Virus record (IMG/VR): IMGVR_UViG_3300046001_007123
Source of the DNA: a virus
Length of the DNA: 64,000 nucleotides
Strand: one strand, 5' to 3'
Position 1 is the first letter of the stretch. Each line of letters opens with the position of its first letter. Shown piece after piece: positions 44,505 through 55,416 of the stretch. The notes beneath the pieces are model-generated. The model was not told the DNA's origin and did no database searches. It saw nothing but the letters and a program-made list of their open reading frames with translations. Made by a program: the position numbers and the translations under genes.

Positions 44505-44612
44505 AGTCAGGTGGCGGAATTGGTAACGTACATATAATGAGAGTTCTGCAGGCTCGCCCGAAAAGTAAGTTATATGGTGGTATAAATACAGGTTCGAATC
44601 CTGTCCTGACTA
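44505..44612 (+). ncRNA. tRNA-derived element A (tRNA-Leu-type acceptor/D arm and T arm/acceptor; 57-nt non-tRNA centre)
   Basis: 5' AGTCAGGTGGCGGAATTGGTAACG ... 3' ACAGGTTCGAATCCTGTCCTGACTA. The centre contains a 7-bp CATATAA/TTATATG stem and will not fold as an anticodon arm. Confidence 0.5.
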
Positions 44613-46765: not shown

Positions 46766-46910
46766 AGTCAGGTGGCGGAATGGTAGACGCTAACCAAGTA
46801 AATCCAAAAGACAGCCTTGCTACTGCAATAGGTGTAGGGGATATGGATTTAATAGTATAATGTGCAGAATGATTACTAACGATTTACAGGTTCGAATCCT
46901 GTCCTGACTA
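46766..46910 (+). ncRNA. tRNA-derived element B (95-nt centre)
   Basis: Same 25-nt 5' half and 26-nt 3' half as element A. The centre has AAATCC/GGATTT and TTGC/GCAA stems. Confidence 0.5.
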
Positions 46911-46932
46911 CAAAAAATTAAAACAAATAGAT

Positions 46933-47049: not shown

Positions 47050-47058
47050 CTAACAAAT

Positions 47059-47095
47059 AGTCAGGTGGTGGAATTGGTAGACTCAGTCCTGACTA
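47059..47095 (+). ncRNA. tRNA-derived element C, collapsed to a 37-nt minihelix
   Basis: AGTCAGGTGGTGGAATTGGTAGAC-TCAG-TCCTGACTAC. The 5' half is joined almost directly to the acceptor 3' strand. Confidence 0.45.
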
Positions 47096-47110
47096 CAAAA
47101 AATTAAAGAT

Positions 47111-47348: not shown

Positions 47349-47445
47349 AGTCAGGTGGCGGAATGGTAGACGCTGATATTTGAGACTACAAGAAACCTAG
47401 GAACGGAAGTGGCAGCTCATACAGGTTCGAATCCTGTCCTGACTA
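47349..47445 (+). ncRNA. tRNA-derived element D (47-nt centre)
   Basis: Conserved halves. The centre has a CCUAGG palindrome. Confidence 0.5.
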
Positions 47446-47514: not shown

Positions 47515-47636
47515 AGTCAGGTGGCGGAAGTGGTGTACGCAGTGGTGTGTTAAATGTGGGAATAGACATAATCCCTAACCCTGAAAGGGGCTAACTGCTT
47601 GTCTCTTAGCTACAGGTTCGATTCCTGTCCTGACTA
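47515..47636 (+). ncRNA. tRNA-derived element E (71-nt centre; T-loop variant TTCGATT)
   Basis: Conserved halves. The centre has a CCCU-GAAA-GGGG GNRA hairpin. Confidence 0.5.
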
Positions 47637-47921: not shown

Positions 47922-48022
47922 AGTCAGGTGGCGGAATTGGTAGACGTATCTCACTCAGGTGTAGATTTGGTGAAACATAAAATGTATCGAATACATTACA
48001 GGTTCGAATCCTGTCCTGACTA
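47922..48022 (+). ncRNA. tRNA-derived element F (50-nt centre with a CTCAGGT Leu-CAG-like loop and an AAUGUAU-CGA-AUACAUU hairpin)
   Basis: Nearest to a real type-II tRNA-Leu. The putative anticodon stem has only 3-4 bp and 15 extra nt. Confidence 0.5.
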
Positions 48023-48422: not shown

Positions 48423-48450
48423 CAATGGGGGGATTTTTTGTTTACGGGTA
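48411..48450 (+). terminator. rho-independent terminator (TCCCTC-loop-GGGGGGA, T6)
   Basis: Overlaps the 3' end of the 48039 gene. Confidence 0.6.
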
Positions 48451-48461
48451 TATTTATTAAT

Positions 48462-48824
48462 ATGAACCTACAAGAAAACATACAAAGAATTAGAGAAATG
48501 ATGGGAATGGATAATTCTCGTTTAACTTTTGACATACAAAAACTTGTGGATGATGAAATTATATTCGTTACAGAACCAGGTGATGGACAAGGAGGAATTG
48601 CAAAACCAAATTGGGAAGGGGATTGTAGTGTAATAACATTAGCCAACTTAACAGATGATGAAATAAAATTAAATCCGTGGAGATTAAAGGCAATAGAAAG
48701 ACCTTTTAGTGATTGCATACCATATGTCCAAGATAGACAAAATGAATGGAGTGAAGAAAAATACCAACAAGTTATTGATTCAATAAAAATGAAAGGTGAA
48801 GAAGTTGATAATTATATAATATGA
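48462..48824 (+). CDS. family-2 member (MNLQENIQRIREMMG)
   Basis: Start moved to the ATG directly after the TATATTTATTAAT box. Confidence 0.5.
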   Translation: MNLQENIQRIREMMGMDNSRLTFDIQKLVDDEIIFVTEPGDGQGGIAKPNWEGDCSVITLANLTDDEIKLNPWRLKAIERPFSDCIPYVQDRQNEWSEEKYQQVIDSIKMKGEEVDNYII

Positions 48825-49276
48825 ACCTACAGGAACACATAAGAAGAGTACTAAAGGAAGAGACGTTAAAGACCAAATTAATTCACAACATCAAGAATGA
48901 TGGTTGGTTTAATGTTTCGCCATATGTAGGTGGTGATGATAATCTTAAAAAAGTTACTGACATACATAACGCGTTAGGTTTTATGAAGTTGTTTTTAGAT
49001 CTAAAAGGAGTTGTAAGCGAACAAGAACCACTAATGAGGTTATATAAAAATGAGAATGGGGAAAACGTATTTGTTATAAGAACTATATGGAATGAAAATA
49101 CGATTTACGTTAATTATGATTTAATTTTTAGACCATTAAAGGTTTTTTTAGAAACGGATACAAATATGAAGACAAGAGATTTTTTAGACAAATGGTTTAA
49201 AAATAAGTACGGTATTATAGTTAATGATTGGGTAAATCATTTCTCAAAGGATGATTATATAGGGATGATTAATTAA
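48821..49276 (+). CDS. family-2 member (MNLQEHIRRVLKEETLK)
   Basis: ATGA junction. Confidence 0.5.
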   Translation: MNLQEHIRRVLKEETLKTKLIHNIKNDGWFNVSPYVGGDDNLKKVTDIHNALGFMKLFLDLKGVVSEQEPLMRLYKNENGENVFVIRTIWNENTIYVNYDLIFRPLKVFLETDTNMKTRDFLDKWFKNKYGIIVNDWVNHFSKDDYIGMIN

Positions 49277-49752: not shown

Positions 49753-49788
49753 AGTACAAAGATAATAATAATATATGTATGACACAAT

Positions 49789-49873
49789 AAGAGTATACGA
49801 TTAAACTATTCATTACATCCTCCCGTTCGTAAACTCACTACGGACTTCATTCATAATTTTATCCTATACTCTT
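49789..49873. repeat. 85-bp element with 9-bp terminal inverted repeats (AAGAGTATA...TATACTCTT), copy 1
   Basis: Internal CCGT-loop-ACGG hairpin. A second copy (about 80% identical) lies at 50886..50967. Confidence 0.6.
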
Positions 49874-49906: not shown

Positions 49907-50089
49907 ATGGAAAATACAAAATCACTTTTAGATGAGGTTCTCGAACACTATGAGAACAACGATCAACCTACAGACGAAACTCCGTCGGAGGTTAAAGAAT
50001 CTTTCTGTAAATTACAGGAGTATTTAGTTGGGGATGGGGATATTCGACATCTGTATGATTACTACAATTTAGTTAATCAAGGTAAGTAA
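49907..50089 (+). CDS. hypothetical acidic protein
   Basis: 60-aa ORF with the ATATATTTGTATT-ATGGAAAA leader. Confidence 0.4.
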   Translation: MENTKSLLDEVLEHYENNDQPTDETPSEVKESFCKLQEYLVGDGDIRHLYDYYNLVNQGK

Positions 50090-50096
50090 AAAAACT

Positions 50097-50130
50097 TAGA
50101 TCCTCCATTGTGAAGTGGGGGATTTTTTGT
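50097..50130 (+). terminator. rho-independent terminator (GATCCTCCA-loop-TGGGGGATT, T6)
   Basis: ATCC..GGGGAT type. Confidence 0.65.
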
Positions 50131-50141
50131 ATATTTGTTTT

Positions 50142-50888
50142 ATGGACATTGAAAAAAAGATATCAATTAAGAATTTTATTAAAGACCTCACAGTCTCTGA
50201 AGTAGTTGATTTTTTTGGGTCTTTAAAAAACGTATCAAAAATTCTTGGATATGAATCAATTTTAAATCTTTATGGTGCGACTGATAACGGACATCCCGAT
50301 TATATTTTTTATGACGGAGTTAAACAAACAGTAACAAATGATTTTAATTTTGGTGATTGGACTAGTATAAATAAAATTATTTGGGACTCAGGTCAATGTT
50401 TCCACACAAACATTACTAACCTTTCCAATATGCAATCTACATCAGGTAATTTTGGTATTTACGATTTAGTTTTAACTAATTTCGGAGGTTTAGAAATTCA
50501 CAACGGGGATTTTATTGTGGGACACGATTCTACAATTATTATTTGGGACACTTTAAAAAATGTATTGGGCAATTTAGTAATCTATGAAACAGCTTGCGTG
50601 GAAAGTTTGGGAAATTTAAAGATAGTTGGTGGTAAGTTAGACATTAGAGGGGTAGTGCATGATTTAGGTGAGTTAGAATATGTCGGAGGAGATTTAATTG
50701 TAAAAAACAAGTTACTCAAATCTTTAGGTAATGTAAAACACATAAAAGGTAGACTTAGAATTAGAAATAGTGGGATATCAGATATTGGTTCTTTAGAGAA
50801 AGTTGATGGTGGAGTTTTAATAGATAAAAACACGCCAACTTCTTTAATTAATCAACTTAAAGAACGAAACATTAAGTACAAAAAGTAA
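50142..50888 (+). CDS. leucine-rich-repeat-like protein
   Basis: Repeating LGNLVIY / SLGNLKIVGGKLDIRG / LGELEYVGGDLIV / SLGNVKHIKGRLRIRN / IGSLEKVDGGVLI units. Confidence 0.5.
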   Translation: MDIEKKISIKNFIKDLTVSEVVDFFGSLKNVSKILGYESILNLYGATDNGHPDYIFYDGVKQTVTNDFNFGDWTSINKIIWDSGQCFHTNITNLSNMQSTSGNFGIYDLVLTNFGGLEIHNGDFIVGHDSTIIIWDTLKNVLGNLVIYETACVESLGNLKIVGGKLDIRGVVHDLGELEYVGGDLIVKNKLLKSLGNVKHIKGRLRIRNSGISDIGSLEKVDGGVLIDKNTPTSLINQLKERNIKYKK

Positions 50889-50967
50889 GAGTATACGATC
50901 AATTCATTCGGTTCATAGTCCTCCGTTATCACTACGGAATTCACCTCATAAATTTATCCTACACTCT
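50886..50967. repeat. 85-bp TIR-bounded element, copy 2 (AAGAGTATA...TACACTCTT)
   Basis: Starts on the stop codon of 50142..50888. The internal CCGT-loop-ACGG hairpin is conserved. Confidence 0.6.
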
Positions 50968-51247
50968 TACCGTTATTATAGGTCCATAAGGTAAAATATA
51001 ATTTACAAATTAATGTATATTTGTAAAAAGTATTTTCAGTTATTAATCCCCCCACTTATAAAAGACCCCCAATGAAAGACAGACATTATGGTATACAATT
51101 TTGTTATACGATGAGGTATTCATTGTGGTGTTCATTTTAAAGGAATGTTCAGTTACACTGAACATAAAGAATTAGTGAACAGATGAAGGAATATATGAAA
51201 GTATATTTTAGTATGTAGATGAAAGGGTTATTAAGTATATCATTCAG

Positions 51248-51264
51248 GTCAGGTTAAACCTGAC
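51248..51264. other. perfect 7-bp hairpin GTCAGGT-TAA-ACCTGAC (acceptor-stem sequence of the tRNA-derived elements with no insert)
   Basis: GGTCAGG...CCTGACTAT mirrors the AGTCAGG...CCTGACTAC ends of elements A to F. Confidence 0.4.
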
Positions 51265-51495
51265 TATAGTGATATAAAAGATACCCACTTATTACCACCA
51301 CTTTACTTGTATGTTTAGTATGTCTATTATTAGGGGGTCAGATGTTGAATGGATCCCTTACGGGTCGTTGAAGAATGATTATAATATGACATTATGTCCT
51401 ACTCTAACGTCCTAAAGGACTGTCCCCGCTCATTGTACTCTAACACTATATTTTTTGCTGGAATTTATATATAGTAAAAAAAATGGTCTTCTTGA

Positions 51496-51517
51496 CCCCT
51501 ACAGAGGGGATTTTTTA
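51496..51517 (+). terminator. orphan rho-independent terminator (CCCCT-ACAG-AGGGG, T6) in a non-coding region
   Basis: No ORF upstream, which suggests a small RNA 3' end. Confidence 0.45.
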
Positions 51518-51683
51518 TGGCTGGTCATACAACCAGCAAGGATTATGGTGGTAGAAAGTGGTAATGAAATGGGGAAGTAATAGATCAAAACCCCGTGAGG
51601 GGATTGTGTGGTGAAGCGAACGTGACTGACATTTTGACAAAATCAAGTTTTTTAACATATATTTATTAACAAAAGTCCCCCTT

Positions 51684-51965
51684 ATGATAGAATTAATCAA
51701 CAAGTTCTCAACAACACTAACCGATAATAACGGTACCATAATGGTTAATTATGAGAATGGTCCCCTAACAGGGTTCTGTGAGTATAGTATGATCGAAGTA
51801 AATAACCGATTTAAACAGAAGGCGTGGGTTCTTGTCAACACCGATATGGGTGATGTCATAGAGTTCATTCATTCCAACTCCCCTCTGTCAGGAGAGAAAC
51901 TACAAGATGTTAATAAGTTATTAAGAGATCATTCCCTTTCAAAGGTCAAGGAGATCAATCCTTAA
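51684..51965 (+). CDS. hypothetical protein
   Basis: 93-aa ORF with the TATATTTATTAAC box 20 nt upstream. Confidence 0.4.
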   Translation: MIELINKFSTTLTDNNGTIMVNYENGPLTGFCEYSMIEVNNRFKQKAWVLVNTDMGDVIEFIHSNSPLSGEKLQDVNKLLRDHSLSKVKEINP

Positions 51966-52173
51966 TAGGGGGTTCAAGAACATCATCCTCAAGTAAACCT
52001 TTCTCAAGGGGTTTAGTAGGTTCAAGATCTATATCAGAGATAATATGTTTACTGATCCACATCCCCAACTTAGTGTGGGGGCGTGTCTTAACTATATGAA
52101 TACTGATTAGTATTGGTAAGGATAGAATGGCGATCCCCAACATACACAGAAGGAAGTATAAGATATAAATCAT
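51955..52173 (-). CDS. small membrane protein
   Basis: 72 aa with an N-terminal TM helix YILYFLLCMLGIAILSLPILISI. Confidence 0.4.
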   Translation of the reverse strand: MIYILYFLLCMLGIAILSLPILISIHIVKTRPHTKLGMWISKHIISDIDLEPTKPLEKGLLEDDVLEPPIKD

Positions 52174-52355
52174 TCTTCGTCCTCTTCTTCAATAAGGTTT
52201 AGTTCAGTAGATGGTAGAACACAAGGGATGGTTCTAACGATCATAGATGAAACCCCCAATCCAAATAGGGATGACAATAGTACGATAAGTAAATTAGTTT
52301 TCATATATCTCCAAAAAGTTAATGGTCCAATCATACATTCTTCTAACAGGTCCAA
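52170..52355 (-). CDS. small membrane protein with acidic tail
   Basis: 61 aa (LLIVLLSSLFGLGVSSMIV), ending EEEDEE. ATGA overlap with 51955..52173. Confidence 0.4.
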   Translation of the reverse strand: MDLLEECMIGPLTFWRYMKTNLLIVLLSSLFGLGVSSMIVRTIPCVLPSTELNLIEEEDEE

Positions 52356-53120
52356 CCAATGAACAGTAGAGTCTGTACATAATGAGGGGTAATGTTAAAT
52401 AGAGAATAGTAATCATATGTAAATATAAGTATAATATTTTGATTGACAATATGTTTTTTATAATAGATGATTATATTTATAATAGATCATTCACCCCACG
52501 CAGGGTGTTAGTTGTTCAGTCACTTCGGTACGTAAAGGATAAGATGATCACAACAAACAAACAATAAGATCTGTAATCTCTTACAAACGTGGGGGAATTT
52601 TTTTATGCTTATATATATTATAAGGCAGGTTGGAGTCTACACTCCAAGGGGTGTTGTTCCCCCAGCCCGACATCTCTCTCACATTGTCCATACAAAGATA
52701 GGGAATATAATTGACACCACCAAAGGATCACTAAGTTATTTACTAAATAAAGTTATTAACAATATACCTACCTCCCCTGATCTTGGCATGGGGGTCCTCC
52801 TGTCATATAGACCCCTCCCCCCCTCCGTATCCCCCCCATATATGACATTTTGACACCCTATTAGGGGGGTCAATCCCGCGTGTAACGTATTCGTAAAAAA
52901 TTTTCTGGAAAAAAATTTGGGAAAAATGGAAACTATTTCCCCCATCTATTCTTGGATTTATCTATATGAATACACCACATAAATCCAATCATAATCCGTA
53001 AAGTAAAACTCTTCTAATCTGTAATGTCGACCCCCTCTTCAAATGGATCCCAAATACTGAAAAAAAATTTCTGGAAAAAATTGGGGAAAATGGGAGTATT
53101 TATAATTAAACAATAACATT

Positions 53121-53348
53121 ATGAAAAAAGTAATTAGATTAACTGAAAGGGATCTTGAGAATATCGTTAAACGAACAATCAATGAGTGGGACGAAAATAC
53201 TTTGTATAAGGACATCAAAGGAATAATCAGAAACTCCAATTCGGGACGAGAAGAAGTTATTAGTATTTTGAGAACCATTGCTGACGAAATGGAATCAGGT
53301 GGGAGAATGAGTGACAACATCAGAAAGAGATTTAGAGGTGAAATGTAA
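53121..53348 (+). CDS. family-1 member (MKKVIRLTERDLENIVKRTINEW)
   Basis: 75 aa with its own terminator. Confidence 0.55.
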   Translation: MKKVIRLTERDLENIVKRTINEWDENTLYKDIKGIIRNSNSGREEVISILRTIADEMESGGRMSDNIRKRFRGEM

Positions 53349-53374: not shown

Positions 53375-53408
53375 AACCCCTTCAACCACGGAGGGGTTTT
53401 TTGTTTTC
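53375..53408 (+). terminator. rho-independent terminator (AAACCCCTTC-loop-GGAGGGGTTTTTT)
   Basis: GC stem plus T-run. Confidence 0.7.
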
Positions 53409-53426
53409 CATAGTATTTATTTATAT

Positions 53427-53903
53427 ATGAAAATCATTATCACAGAATCTCAATTAAATCTATTTCTTAATGAAGAATCATTAAAACAGAATCTACTATC
53501 TCAGATTGAGGAGAACGGGTGGGCTGAAACCGCCGAACTTGTTGGGTATAAAAACCTTTTAAACATTGTTGGTTATGATAAGTTGGTTGACTTATTGATT
53601 TCCTCTTTTAATGATTTAAATGTAATAACAAGGGGTCGTAATGTAATCTTACGTGATAACCACCTCCCATTAATGGAAACAACTAAAGATGTATTTGGGG
53701 ATAATTGGGTAATGGTATATAACGATCATATTATATTGAGACTCGAACTTAGATTGGGTTCCGACATTTTAGAAATTTATGAAAAAGTAAGAAGGGAATT
53801 CATTAGGGAACTAATAAATAGATTTCCTGAATTATCTGGACAAAAAGTTGAGGTCTTTAAAGACAGCGGACTTTATCAAAAATACGATTCATTTGAGTTA
53901 TAA
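53427..53903 (+). CDS. family-1 member (MKIIITESQLNLFLNEES)
   Basis: 158 aa. GTATTTATTTATAT-ATG leader. Confidence 0.55.
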   Translation: MKIIITESQLNLFLNEESLKQNLLSQIEENGWAETAELVGYKNLLNIVGYDKLVDLLISSFNDLNVITRGRNVILRDNHLPLMETTKDVFGDNWVMVYNDHIILRLELRLGSDILEIYEKVRREFIRELINRFPELSGQKVEVFKDSGLYQKYDSFEL

Positions 53904-53914
53904 TATTTATTAAT

Positions 53915-54295
53915 ATGGAACAATTAATTAAAAGGATTATTAGGGAGTCGGTTATGGGGAAGTTCGTTGAATCTCATATCCCCCAGCTTAACAACCTTAA
54001 AAGGAAATCTAATTATAGTTCTCGTTTGTATGGATCAAACGTTATCTATTACGATAAGGACAGTAAGGAATATTATTTTAGGGTTGCCGAACCAAGGGAC
54101 GTATATTATTGGGACGAAGTTGAGGATAAGTACATATTAAGGAATGTCGGGAAAACCTTATATATCCTTAAAGATCTTTATAATGAAATATCTGACTTCA
54201 TCCCTAACGATGATATGATATTAAAATGGTTTAACGAGAAGTATAAACAAGATGCCGAAAGGTTGCAAACACATTATATTCTAAAACAAGCATAA
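53915..54295 (+). CDS. family-2-like member (MEQLIKRIIRESVMG)
   Basis: 126 aa. ATATTTATTAAT-ATG leader. Confidence 0.5.
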   Translation: MEQLIKRIIRESVMGKFVESHIPQLNNLKRKSNYSSRLYGSNVIYYDKDSKEYYFRVAEPRDVYYWDEVEDKYILRNVGKTLYILKDLYNEISDFIPNDDMILKWFNEKYKQDAERLQTHYILKQA

Positions 54296-54302
54296 CTCAT
54301 CT

Positions 54303-54632
54303 ATGAAATTAATAATCACTGAAGATCAATATAATAAATTATCCCTACGTAGAAGATTGGGGGATATGTTAAATGTTGCGTCTGATTTAATCGATATGGG
54401 TGATGAATTTTATGGTAATCTTGATTTCTGTAAGTATTTCCCCACGTTTCAGAAATACATAAGTAATATAGTTGGGGACATTATAGAACTTTATGACCCT
54501 GATTATGGTATTGATGATATATCTGATTTTATTTATGAGGGTGTTGGTTACGAAACCTTCGTTAAGTTATTAATGGATGAACACGGGGCTAAGATTAGAA
54601 GTTTCTATAATAGAAAAACAAGAGATTGTTAA
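54303..54632 (+). CDS. family-1 member (MKLIITEDQYNKLSLRRR)
   Basis: 109 aa. Confidence 0.55.
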   Translation: MKLIITEDQYNKLSLRRRLGDMLNVASDLIDMGDEFYGNLDFCKYFPTFQKYISNIVGDIIELYDPDYGIDDISDFIYEGVGYETFVKLLMDEHGAKIRSFYNRKTRDC

Positions 54633-54786: not shown

Positions 54787-55416
54787 ATGAAATACATTAT
54801 AACCGAATCTCAGTATCAGTCCATTAAGGAGTCTTTAGAAAAAAACAAAAAGTTTTTAATTAAAACTATGGGTGTTGATCTAACCGACAATATTCAGATG
54901 GTAAACTCACGATATGATGTCCCGACGGAATTTGATGAAGGTATTAGTCCTGATTTGGTTAGACGTATGTTAAACAATTGGGGACCTATGTATCTTTTTA
55001 ATCTGAATGGTAAGGATTATTTATATCAGGATCGTGGGGAGTACGAATGGTTTATTGATACGGAGGGTTTTGAGTTTGTTGATAATGAAATTATTGAGAA
55101 ACTTGGGGTTGATGTATTGGGTATGGATTTTTCTGATATAATTAAAGTATTTTATACTGAAGATCAATCCATAAACGAATCCACAGAAAAGGATTATACT
55201 TCCCTGATCGATAAGTTTATTTCCGAATATGATTTCCCTGATTATTTTAAGGGATATAACATTGGTAGAGATGACGACGCGTATAAGGTCACATTTGTTG
55301 TCGGTAAAGAACAAATGAAAAGATACCAAGAGGTCTTCAAGGTAATCGAACCATTATTTGACGATATAAATTCTTTCATTCCAATTAATGTGTGGCCAAA
55401 GGTTGAGTATAAGTAA
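54787..55416 (+). CDS. family-1 member (MKYIITESQYQSIKESLEK)
   Basis: 209 aa. ATATATTTATTATAAT-ATG leader. Confidence 0.55.
   Translation: MKYIITESQYQSIKESLEKNKKFLIKTMGVDLTDNIQMVNSRYDVPTEFDEGISPDLVRRMLNNWGPMYLFNLNGKDYLYQDRGEYEWFIDTEGFEFVDNEIIEKLGVDVLGMDFSDIIKVFYTEDQSINESTEKDYTSLIDKFISEYDFPDYFKGYNIGRDDDAYKVTFVVGKEQMKRYQEVFKVIEPLFDDINSFIPINVWPKVEYK

Follow-up and report, generated by a model that had tools for sequence, protein, structure and literature searches.

What does a phage keep in a stretch of some 2 kb that encodes little protein, when the DNA around it is dense with genes? The stretch in question, positions 50,968 to 53,120 (the region), lies in IMG/VR virus record IMGVR_UViG_3300046001_007123, of which 64 kb were analysed as a whole (the window; GC ~0.31, with plus-strand genes densely packed). 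An initial annotation had singled the region out for its palindromes, direct repeats and C-tracts and had offered as candidates a replication origin with iterons, a packaging or terminal-repeat site, a regulatory switch or a cluster of small RNAs, with decayed coding sequence as the null. Comparison with relatives establishes that the region belongs to a module present in more than 100 freshwater phage contigs of 1–296 kb, and that two blocks of this module, designated B and D, are conserved as primary sequence, not as protein or folded RNA. The account ranked first, held tentatively and with less than even confidence, is that the region is a conserved, mostly non-coding, DNA-level transcription-control module whose transcription units lack an open reading frame (ORF).

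Relatives were found through ORF93, a small gene within the region, and by pattern scans that recovered D in 13 IMG/VR contigs and B in 15 (12.9–296 kb), as well as D in 101 metagenome stretches; the metagenome search pattern fixed 26 of the 44 positions of the D core, and loci fetched via ORF93 or via B served as an independence check on D. All relatives found through ORF93 carry a gene-free gap of ~800–900 bp before this gene, and the gaps are homologous to one another (blastn, MAFFT) and the flanking genes differ. The order of parts in relatives is fixed: hairpin A, a spacer, block B, the 14-bp boxes, a consensus promoter, ORF93, convergent small membrane-protein genes, a leftward promoter and block D, whose stem-loop is followed at the right end of the module by a TATATTTAT-type promoter and a small gene. 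Identity with relatives reaches 96% in A and is ~75% in B (51215–51683) and 75–85% in D (52605–52640 plus 52690–52940); both B and D are single-copy. The features that carry the argument are, from left to right:

51285..51298, minus strand: inverted copy of a 14-bp box, GTGG(T/G)ANAAAGTGG, one of two occurrences in the window.
51302..51330, plus strand: conserved sigma-70-like promoter, (G)TTTAC-N17-TATTAT, facing block B.
51331..51495, plus strand: core of block B, ORF-less, with the conserved stretch TCTAACGTCCTAAAGGACTGTCC and with TTTTTCGCTGGAAAA.
51409..51420, plus strand: short hairpin GTCC-TAAA-GGAC within the TCTAACGTCCTAAAGGACTGTCC motif.
51496..51519, plus strand: terminator-like hairpin CCCCT-ACAG-AGGGG with a T-run, ending block B.
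51548..51561, plus strand: direct copy of the 14-bp box, GTGGTAGAAAGTGG, with GTGG repeated 10 bp apart.
51627..51665, plus strand: putative ORF93 promoter, in which the 13-mer TGACATTTTGACA supplies TTTG/TTGACA and TATATTTA follows 21 nt later.
51684..51965, plus strand: ORF93, a real, acidic protein of 93 aa.
52622..52647, plus strand: conserved block AAGGCAGGYTGGAGTCTAC, here a hairpin TTGGAGT-CTAC-ACTCCAA, placed after a G-run, a T-run and a TATATATATT box.
52693..52724, minus strand: putative leftward promoter TTTG-N19-TATCTTTG, a perfect Bacteroidota-type consensus.
52812..52855, plus strand: D core, CCCCTCCCCCCCTCCGTATCCCCCCC-ATATA-TGACATTTTGACA, a C-rich tract and the 13-mer.
52856..52930, plus strand: right half of D, comprising a variable triplet, a G-run, TCAATCCC, GTATTCGTAAAAAA and TTTCTGG-A7-TTTGGG-A5 (copy 1 of an A-rich repeat).
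52918..52944, unstranded: closing stem-loop of D, GGGAAAAAT...ATTTCCCCC, which ends the block.

Conservation of D is patchy, with near-invariant blocks beside freely varying positions. In six loci fetched without reference to D, the block is 84–95% identical over ~102–118 nt, and its DNA is still 78–83% identical over ~105–130 nt in loci where the ORF93 protein has fallen to 29–35% identity. The D core, found in every locus that reaches far enough, differs at 0–6 of its 44 nt in loci fetched independently of the motif (0–4 in most, ~6 in locus L027). None of this conservation is explained by a gene. The region is as ORF-poor as first described, since the two longest stretches of the window without an ORF of at least 70 aa, 50889–51514 and 52174–52604, both lie in or at it, and reassigning TAG, TGA or TAA as sense opens no long frame. 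Block B is judged non-coding because its indels are not multiples of three. An 82-codon ORF does cross D in this genome (52605–52853), and a conserved gene there was considered and rejected: the open frame spans 13–47 codons in 72 of 82 relatives, and the ATG-initiated ORF amounts to 3 codons in more than half.

A conserved fold fares no better as an explanation. Searched against Rfam 15, the region yields no match at gathering threshold and none even at E < 5; under permissive settings the top hits (E 0.11–3) are sequences that resemble terminators, beyond its borders. The folding energies of D and of the B core are ordinary (z ~0). A large folded RNA in B or D was rejected after RNAalifold, applied to 11, 27, 35 and 73 sequences on both strands, left short hairpins only; among the 73 unique D sequences every predicted pair is invariant, which is covariation evidence neither for nor against a fold. 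Compensatory pairs in the B and D alignments are limited to three short hairpins, with element A, described below, as the exception (4 of 22 pairs). The hairpin at 51409–51420 illustrates the scale: GTCC-TAAA-GGAC becomes ACAT-TAAA-ATGT in 9 of 27 sequences, with two pairs compensated on both sides, and it is the sole helix, of 3 bp, that RNAalifold retains in block B.

What is retained instead in and beside block B has the character of short sites on DNA. In the promoter facing the block, TTTAC and GTCTATTATTAGGGGGTC are nearly invariant, and the block itself holds 11–12-nt GGTCGTTGAAG-like repeats whose copy number varies among relatives. The 14-bp box, which occurs only twice in 64 kb, has a direct copy at a fixed distance of –79/–80 from the 13-mer in 30 of 35 loci; most of these have a second direct copy at –44 to –56, giving one or two direct copies spaced 23–35 bp apart, and an inverted copy stands at a variable distance, 250–350 nt further upstream, in 28 of the 35. 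Pairing of the inverted copies into a long-range helix was examined and rejected, as the variable fifth base does not co-vary between copies; for the same reason the boxes are taken as candidate protein sites on DNA and not as an RNA helix.

The promoter assigned to ORF93 has a TTGACA-18-TATATT that matches the sigma-70 consensus at 11 of 12 positions; it is the sole TTGACA-N16-19-TAnnnT in the window, against ~7 expected from shuffles, and it is nearly invariant over 35 loci. It also matches TTTG-N21-TAnnTTT(A). Promoters of Bacteroides and Flavobacterium follow a Bacteroidota –33/–7 consensus, TTTG/TAnnTTTG, and as a sequence match the TTTG-N21-TATATTTA arrangement fits it. The 13-mer at the head of this promoter was already reported to recur, and it does occur exactly at 51627 and 52843, with no further exact copy in 64 kb. 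An exact 13-mer is repeated within 2.1 kb in ~9% of randomisations, so the repeat is weak by itself; what makes it real is that relatives conserve it. Downstream, ORF93 has 810 homologues, with 70–95% identity among the matches listed; its predicted structure is a four-stranded sheet with two helices (pLDDT 75.5), and no informative fold, Pfam or PHROG match and no initiator-like fold was found for it.

The source is probably an uncultured freshwater phage with a Bacteroidota host, because several large window ORFs carry type IX secretion system (T9SS) sorting domains (Por_Secre_tail) and two module contigs are binned in Bacteroidia/Bacteroidetes metagenome-assembled genomes (MAGs); CHU_C occurs in neighbouring DNA. 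The two contigs, L134 (JBIPPH010000103.1) and L135 (RGCF01000294.1), come from lake MAGs and carry the ORF93 promoter context; when a host-chromosome origin was considered, the promoter 13-mer with its context hit these two alone, both being short pieces of the same phage module. The support they lend to the host phylum is weak, as it derives from binning. The D core has zero matches across 185,579 species genomes, and its origin in a host chromosome was rejected. Lake metagenomes, that of Lake Mendota among them, contain near-identical contigs of up to 120 kb; GenBank phages show no DNA-level match to the window and close relatives of two flanking proteins were not found in IMG/VR. A search of 10 window ORFs against PHROGs left 8 without a family, gave an endolysin as the sole functional match and detected no T4-type protein.

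At the left of D, the conserved block at 52622–52647 may, to judge from its sequence setting, be the start of a rightward ORF-less transcript. At the putative leftward promoter, a ACAAAGATA...CACCAAA block is kept in the consensus of 73 D segments; to its right follow a C-run/G-run hairpin and a TG(G/A)CATATGAC box. Beyond the core 13-mer come a freely varying triplet (CCC, GGT or GGG), an A-rich loop, GGGGG(N)TCAATCC, eight variable bases and GTATTCGTAAAAAATTTCTGGAAAAATTTTTGGGAAAAAT. The closing hairpin pairs a G-run with a C-run in relatives, in either order, so that its polarity flips, and in most of them it is followed directly by GGGTATATTTATT and the ATG of a small gene of the MKK(I/V)IRLTE type. 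D thus lies between putative promoters that point leftward and rightward. An invertible segment between C7 and G6 was rejected, the inverted form being present in 0 of 133 loci. The C-tracts that had been called exceptional are so: the three runs of at least six C in the window all lie in the region (51048, 52817 and 52831), 9 of the 18 runs of at least five C fall within 51048–53031, and the region has a GC content of 0.35–0.36 against ~0.31 in neighbouring DNA.

To the right of D, this genome has a second and partial A-rich copy:

53060..53120, plus strand: A-rich repeat copy 2, partial, after which a TATTTAT box leads to the ATG at 53121.

The direct repeat between 52895 and 53060 that was pointed out from the start is real (75% ungapped identity, more with one or two indels). 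In most relatives a single A-rich copy within D directly abuts the TATTTAT-kind promoter; the window has ~130 bp of extra sequence between D and the promoter, with the A-rich part partly duplicated (53060–53095). Because the alignment reveals this extra segment, the 36-bp repeat is read as the probable scar of a ~130-bp insertion or duplication between D and the promoter.

How might such parts work together? Transcription control is ranked first because the blocks are conserved as primary sequence, the 13-mer stands both at a promoter and in D, the 14-bp boxes are fixed in place and the promoters around D diverge. Among the candidates first offered, the regulatory switch and the small-RNA cluster are the best fit to the consensus promoters, terminator hairpins, ORF-less units and boxes resembling protein sites. 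In such a scheme, the 13-mer and the 14-bp boxes, in which GTGG-N6-GTGG recurs, would be recognised by protein, candidates being a sigma subunit of RNA polymerase or a phage or host regulator, and a single factor could couple the ORF93 promoter to block D, which lies in the gap between the leftward and rightward promoters. Block B would be transcribed as an ORF-less unit of ~190 nt, from the promoter at 51302–51330 to the terminator at 51496–51519, and D as another of ~300 nt, from ~52620 to the stem-loop at 52918–52944. The two transcripts could be by-products of control or could be functional themselves.

Several observations weigh against this scheme. Promoters and terminators are all called by match to a consensus. 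Most relatives keep the terminator T-run of B, AGAGGGGATTTTTT; the most distant have an A-run there. Where the 13-mer in D would need a –10 or –7 partner stands TCAATCCC, so that the role assigned to this copy is a guess. ORF93 is acidic (9 K+R against 12 D+E) and lacks a DNA-binding fold that would make it the proposed binding protein. A fair measure of core conservation comes only from the ~10 independently fetched loci. Finally, repeated boxes, an AT-rich stretch and G/C clusters can equally be viewed as origin-like features.

This last point leads to the alternative that survives best, a replication origin, which is possible if doubtful. An initiator would recognise three sets of sites (14-bp boxes, 11-nt repeats and TGAC boxes), with unwinding at the A-tract to the right of D; in a variant, transcription through the C/G core would leave an RNA-DNA hybrid or a minus-strand G-quadruplex (GGGGGGGATACGGAGGGGGGGAGGGG) that primes synthesis. 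Three kinds of repeated box with copy numbers that vary among relatives, a conserved A-tract block beside a G/C-rich core, DNA-level conservation without an RNA fold, minus-strand G-tracts that fit the quadruplex-forming pattern and promoters adjoining the site all accord with this proposal. Yet the iteron version receives little support, for the 14-bp box has only one or two direct copies at an irregular spacing of 23–35 bp, with one inverted copy at a variable distance. No recognisable initiator, helicase or primase gene lies beside the module in any locus, and ORF93 does not have an initiator-like fold. Cumulative GC skew, put forward as a check, rises monotonically through 50–54 kb without an inflection, although this is a weak test where nearly all genes run in one direction.

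It is enticing to speculate further along these lines, in a form that is rather improbable as it stands. Transcription-primed origins include T4 oriF and oriG, the ColE1 origin and mitochondrial conserved sequence block II (CSB II), in which G-tracts stabilise the RNA-DNA hybrids of the primer. D might be a counterpart of CSB II or T4 oriF, a replication start primed by transcription with a C/G-core hybrid or G-quadruplex, in which case the 13-mer would tie the firing of D to the early ORF93 promoter. Equally, D might yield a C-rich decoy RNA of ~300 nt that titrates host Rho or opens GGGGG-armed terminators of the phage itself.

The decoy belongs to a wider proposal, a serious alternative about as doubtful as the origin, that the region encodes two trans-acting small RNAs, with B-RNA and D-RNA as the functional products. 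The C-tract of D-RNA would serve as a seed or decoy for G-rich sequences such as the GGGGGAUUUU arms of terminators in the phage itself, or would soak up a C-binding host protein such as Rho; long unstructured C-rich stretches are indeed the kind of element found in seed regions and in Rho-binding sites. B and D do look like ORF-less units set between promoter-like and terminator-like signals, three short hairpins carry compensatory changes, and the closing stem-loop of D is kept, in either order. The lack of an Rfam match, of excess stability and of covariation in D nevertheless speaks against functional RNAs, as do the 14-bp boxes, which behave as DNA sites, and the loss of the terminator T-run in distant relatives. 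Moreover, the 13-mer of D is identical and not complementary to that of the promoter, which argues for recognition of DNA.

Could D instead be a physical end of the genome, that is a cos or pac site or a short terminal repeat? This is improbable, even though contigs do break there and the G/C-rich core between repeated boxes and A-tracts has a cos-like layout. In a set of 119 contigs, 33 ends cluster around D at distances of up to 150 nt. Half of the right ends (9 of 18) share one base or its neighbour, 16–17 nt after TTGACA (after GGGGG(N)TC), and 7 left ends fall 0–10 nt before TCCCCCCC. The hotspot corresponds to 52830–52872 in the window, and scaffolds of two relatives (L006 and L009) have N-gaps at this position. 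However, right-ending and left-starting contigs overlap by ~44 nt, and each end follows a G-run by 2–3 nt as read, on either strand, with the two borders of the C7...G6 inverted repeat as the sites. D is read through in 86 of the 119 contigs and is internal in contigs of 120–296 kb; it stands at both ends of none, save one 1.3-kb recombinant, and no recognisable terminase gene lies nearby. The packaging or terminal-repeat candidate of the initial annotation is therefore unsupported. Illumina short reads suffer sequence-specific errors after inverted repeats and G-runs. As the ends are symmetric after G-runs and overlap, the hotspot is read as probably a sequencing or assembly artefact, to which strain microdiversity adds, and not as a terminase cut; such an artefact would account for the short contigs, of ~1 kb, that carry most ORF93 homologues.

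The recombinant just mentioned, L102 (a 1325-nt contig, read on the minus strand), bears on yet another alternative. In it, TGACATTTTGACA is the exact point at which the left half of D joins the ORF93 promoter; beyond this junction come ORF93, two ORFs for membrane peptides, a small gene of the MRNIIKLTE type and, 1.19 kb downstream, a second D. Among 129 junctions at the 13-mer this is the only one of its type, and it may represent a rare recombinant of the mini-circle kind between two 13-mer copies, although one contig makes a weak case. A mobile or recently transferred element, whether MITE-like (miniature inverted-repeat transposable element) between the inverted 14-bp boxes or an ORF93 cassette, would attribute the similarity to recent spread. 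Phages with the module in common do differ in their flanking genes, element A has two copies per genome and an identity of up to 96%, the inverted 14-bp boxes bracket ~250 bp and the L102 junction falls at the 13-mer. Recent transfer, though, would give uniform identity, whereas conservation here is patchy; ORF93 diverges down to 29% identity with the order of parts unchanged; and each locus has one module, without target-site duplications or a transposase, and only 1 of 129 junctions is recombinant. A mobile element is accordingly very improbable. The notion that the region is decayed coding sequence, or conceals a gene in an alternative code, is refuted by the comparative data and hardly credible: orphan half-terminators and the 82-codon ORF of this genome are what it can point to, and no recoding opens a long frame, the D ORF is not kept, and the non-coding blocks retain nucleotide identity in divergent phages with different flanks, better than neighbouring proteins do.

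Between ORF93 and D, the module contains a pair of minus-strand genes with their own putative control signals:

51955..52173, minus strand: small membrane protein of 72 aa with a hydrophobic helix at its N terminus and an acidic tail; its gene converges on ORF93.
52170..52355, minus strand: second small membrane protein, whose L102 counterpart begins MKNLL.
52420..52449, minus strand: promoter-like site of the pair, TTGTCA-16-TATATT, or TTG-N-TATATTTA.
52455..52494, plus strand: two tandem 19-nt repeats (TATAATAGAT.ATT; family D1) upstream of the membrane-peptide promoter, with the units TTTTTATAATAGATGATTA and TATTTATAATAGATCATTC.

These peptides had been described as convergent; they overlap by 4 nt on the same, minus strand and so do not converge with each other, but jointly they converge on ORF93. 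The 72-aa protein has matches in 10 other loci (tblastn; 7 without duplicate pairs) at 28–70% identity and an equivalent ORF in L102. The second probably starts at the ATG at 52304 (MKTNLL...), giving 44 aa. The position and character of both are kept in several relatives.

Hairpins and palindromes mark the left part of the module and the DNA before it:

49788..49873, plus strand: second copy of element A, outside the region; TTTT and a TATATATTTG box stand between it and the ATG at 49907.
50886..50970, plus strand: hairpin element A, imperfect, ~85 nt, beginning at the stop codon of the upstream gene.
51003..51026, unstranded: palindrome TTACAAAT-N8-ATTTGTAA, overlapping a TATATTTG box at 51016–51023.
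51145..51165, unstranded: palindrome or hairpin ATGTTCAG-TTACA-CTGAACAT, amid four TGTTCA/TGAACA half-sites.
51236..51276, plus strand: imperfect 20-bp hairpin (inverted repeat I6) with the core GTCAGG-N-CCTGAC, resembling the acceptor stem of tRNA-like repeats.

Element A is 76–96% identical in 7 non-redundant relatives, and 4 of its 22 predicted pairs have compensatory changes. Its two copies in the window are 77% identical by blastn, and the second scores 88 bits with a covariance model (R1); a TAnnTTTG box follows both, with an additional T-run after the second. The second copy occupies the divergent gap between a minus-strand HAD_SAK_2-like gene and a 60-aa ORF at 49907, so that the two copies bracket the genes at 49907–50888; locus L010 also has two copies, which bracket a different gene. 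An integron attC-like site or dispersed repeat was rejected for element A, since the covariance model finds one or two copies per locus, all beside the module.

The palindromes on which the initial annotation had laid emphasis are present, that at 51145–51165 exactly as given and the other one base to the right of where it had been placed, but both sit in the least conserved part of the region. Perfect palindromes with 8-nt arms number four, overlapping, against 0.63 expected, and four or more arise in 1.7% of 300 randomisations by a first-order Markov model of the region, which keeps dinucleotide frequencies only approximately. The multiple alignment keeps the palindrome at 51003–51026 in L006/L007 only. 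For the other, L006 has ATGATCAG...CTGATCAC, a single compensated pair. Folding z-scores across 51100–51299 run from –3 to –5.4. The hairpin-rich spacer (51000–51235) aligns well only with the closest relative (L006/L007); a few other loci match it less well in pairwise comparison, and in L008–L011 unrelated sequence stands in its place. It includes a 22-codon ORF (MKDRHYGIQFCYTMRYSLWCSF; 51073–51141) after the TATATTTG box at 51016 and a C-run, which is kept in L006, too close a relative for translation to be judged.

The hairpin at 51236–51276 is the one that had been termed a bare acceptor-stem hairpin. It shows three co-varying pairs over 35 loci (GC/AU, GC/CG and UA/CG), and the description holds only in that its ends (GTCAGG...CCTGACTA) resemble the tRNA-like repeats at 44.5–48 kb; ARAGORN and the Rfam tRNA model find no tRNA gene inside 50968–53120. 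Those repeats occur on the plus strand at 44505–44612, 46766–46911, 47058–47097, 47349–47445, 47515–47636 and 47922–48022, with small ORFs between them, and have in common acceptor, D and T arms (AGTCAGGTGGCGGAAT.GGTAGAC...ACAGGTTCGAATCCTGTCCTGACTA), the anticodon arm being replaced by variable inserts of 38–75 nt; one is reduced to ~40 nt. Four score 35–44 bits with the Rfam tRNA model and ARAGORN calls none. They might be processing punctuation or RNA scaffolds.

The promoter and stem-loop signals of the region have counterparts throughout the window. The TATATTTAT box (or TAnnTTTG) is ~7-fold enriched upstream of start codons with a peak 11–13 nt before the ATG, a position that implies very short or absent leaders in the predicted transcripts. 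A CC.CC-loop-GGGGGATTTTTT hairpin followed by TATATTTAT and ATG precedes about a dozen of the 104 plus-strand genes, and units or half-units of the same kind lie at 51496–51519, 52590–52619, 52918–52944 and 53097–53120; the orphan terminators noted at the outset are such pieces of stem-loop/promoter cassettes without ORFs. The cassette at 53393–53452 and the gene start at 53097–53185 have up to 9 matches per related locus. Small-protein paralogues are found at 48438–48824, 48821–49276, 53121–53348, 53427–53903, 53915–54295, 54303–54632 and 54787–55416, and at many sites in loci L010, L020, L022 and L023. They have in common only an N-terminal motif, MK.II.ITES/E.Q/DL..., which is conserved as DNA together with the upstream stem-loop and TATATTTAT box; because the three are conserved together as DNA, the 5' coding end looks like part of a recombining cassette. 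By its sequence context, the module adjoins the edge of a run of small genes with their own stem-loop/promoter cassettes that is similar to the promoter-early stem-loop (PeSL) arrays of other phages.

Among described RNA families, protein families and phage records none includes the module, and no described counterpart of the single-copy B and D blocks with their C-rich/13-mer core was found. Large uncultured freshwater phages are known almost solely by their protein genes, and here is a module kept better than the surrounding proteins. Together with ORF93 and its 810 homologues, the cis-acting module constitutes a stable landmark of a lineage with contigs of up to 296 kb. Should it prove to be an early control region or an origin, it would offer a handle for timing infection in metatranscriptomes, for finding the factor that reads TGACATTTTGACA and for explaining the fragmentation of these phages' assemblies at this place.

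Set beside known systems, D resembles a cos site in having a G/C core within AT-rich DNA, repeated boxes with A-tracts and assembly breaks, and departs from one in that the breaks overlap by ~44 nt, most contigs read through and no terminase gene is found nearby. Like the iteron origins of lambda (ori), P1 (oriR) and plasmids, the module places short boxes of variable copy number near an AT-rich stretch; unlike them, with their three or more phased direct repeats of 17–22 bp, it has one or two direct copies at irregular intervals, one inverted copy ~250–350 bp away and no initiator gene found beside it. The likeness to T4 oriF/oriG, ColE1 and CSB II lies in a promoter-like element next to a G/C cluster and an easily unwound A/T stretch, and in the G7...G7AG4 of the minus strand of D, which recalls the primer-stabilising G-tracts of CSB II-type origins; the differences are that skew does not change, replication genes are not adjacent and the 13-mer of D has no –10/–7 box.

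The closest comparison is with PeSL cassettes. In T4-type phages these populate the hyperplastic regions, and by recombining with one another they reshuffle small ORFs and give rise to mini-circles (Arbiol et al. 2010, PMC2839356; Comeau et al. 2014, PMC4122927). As in those regions, many small ORFs without a known function are immediately preceded by units of a stem-loop and promoter, near-identical copies appear to recur within and between related genomes with a gene content between copies that varies by phage, and one contig, L102, looks recombined between two copies of a common motif. Unlike the 50-nt multi-copy PeSL cassettes, B and D are single-copy ORF-less units of 200–300 nt; the promoter box here is TATATTTAT, 11–13 nt before the ATG and without a –35 element; nothing in PeSL cassettes corresponds to the C-rich core or the 13-mer; and no T4-type protein is detectable in the window. 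The module would thus extend a stem-loop/promoter cassette architecture, so far T4-type, to unrelated phages with Bacteroidota-style promoters.

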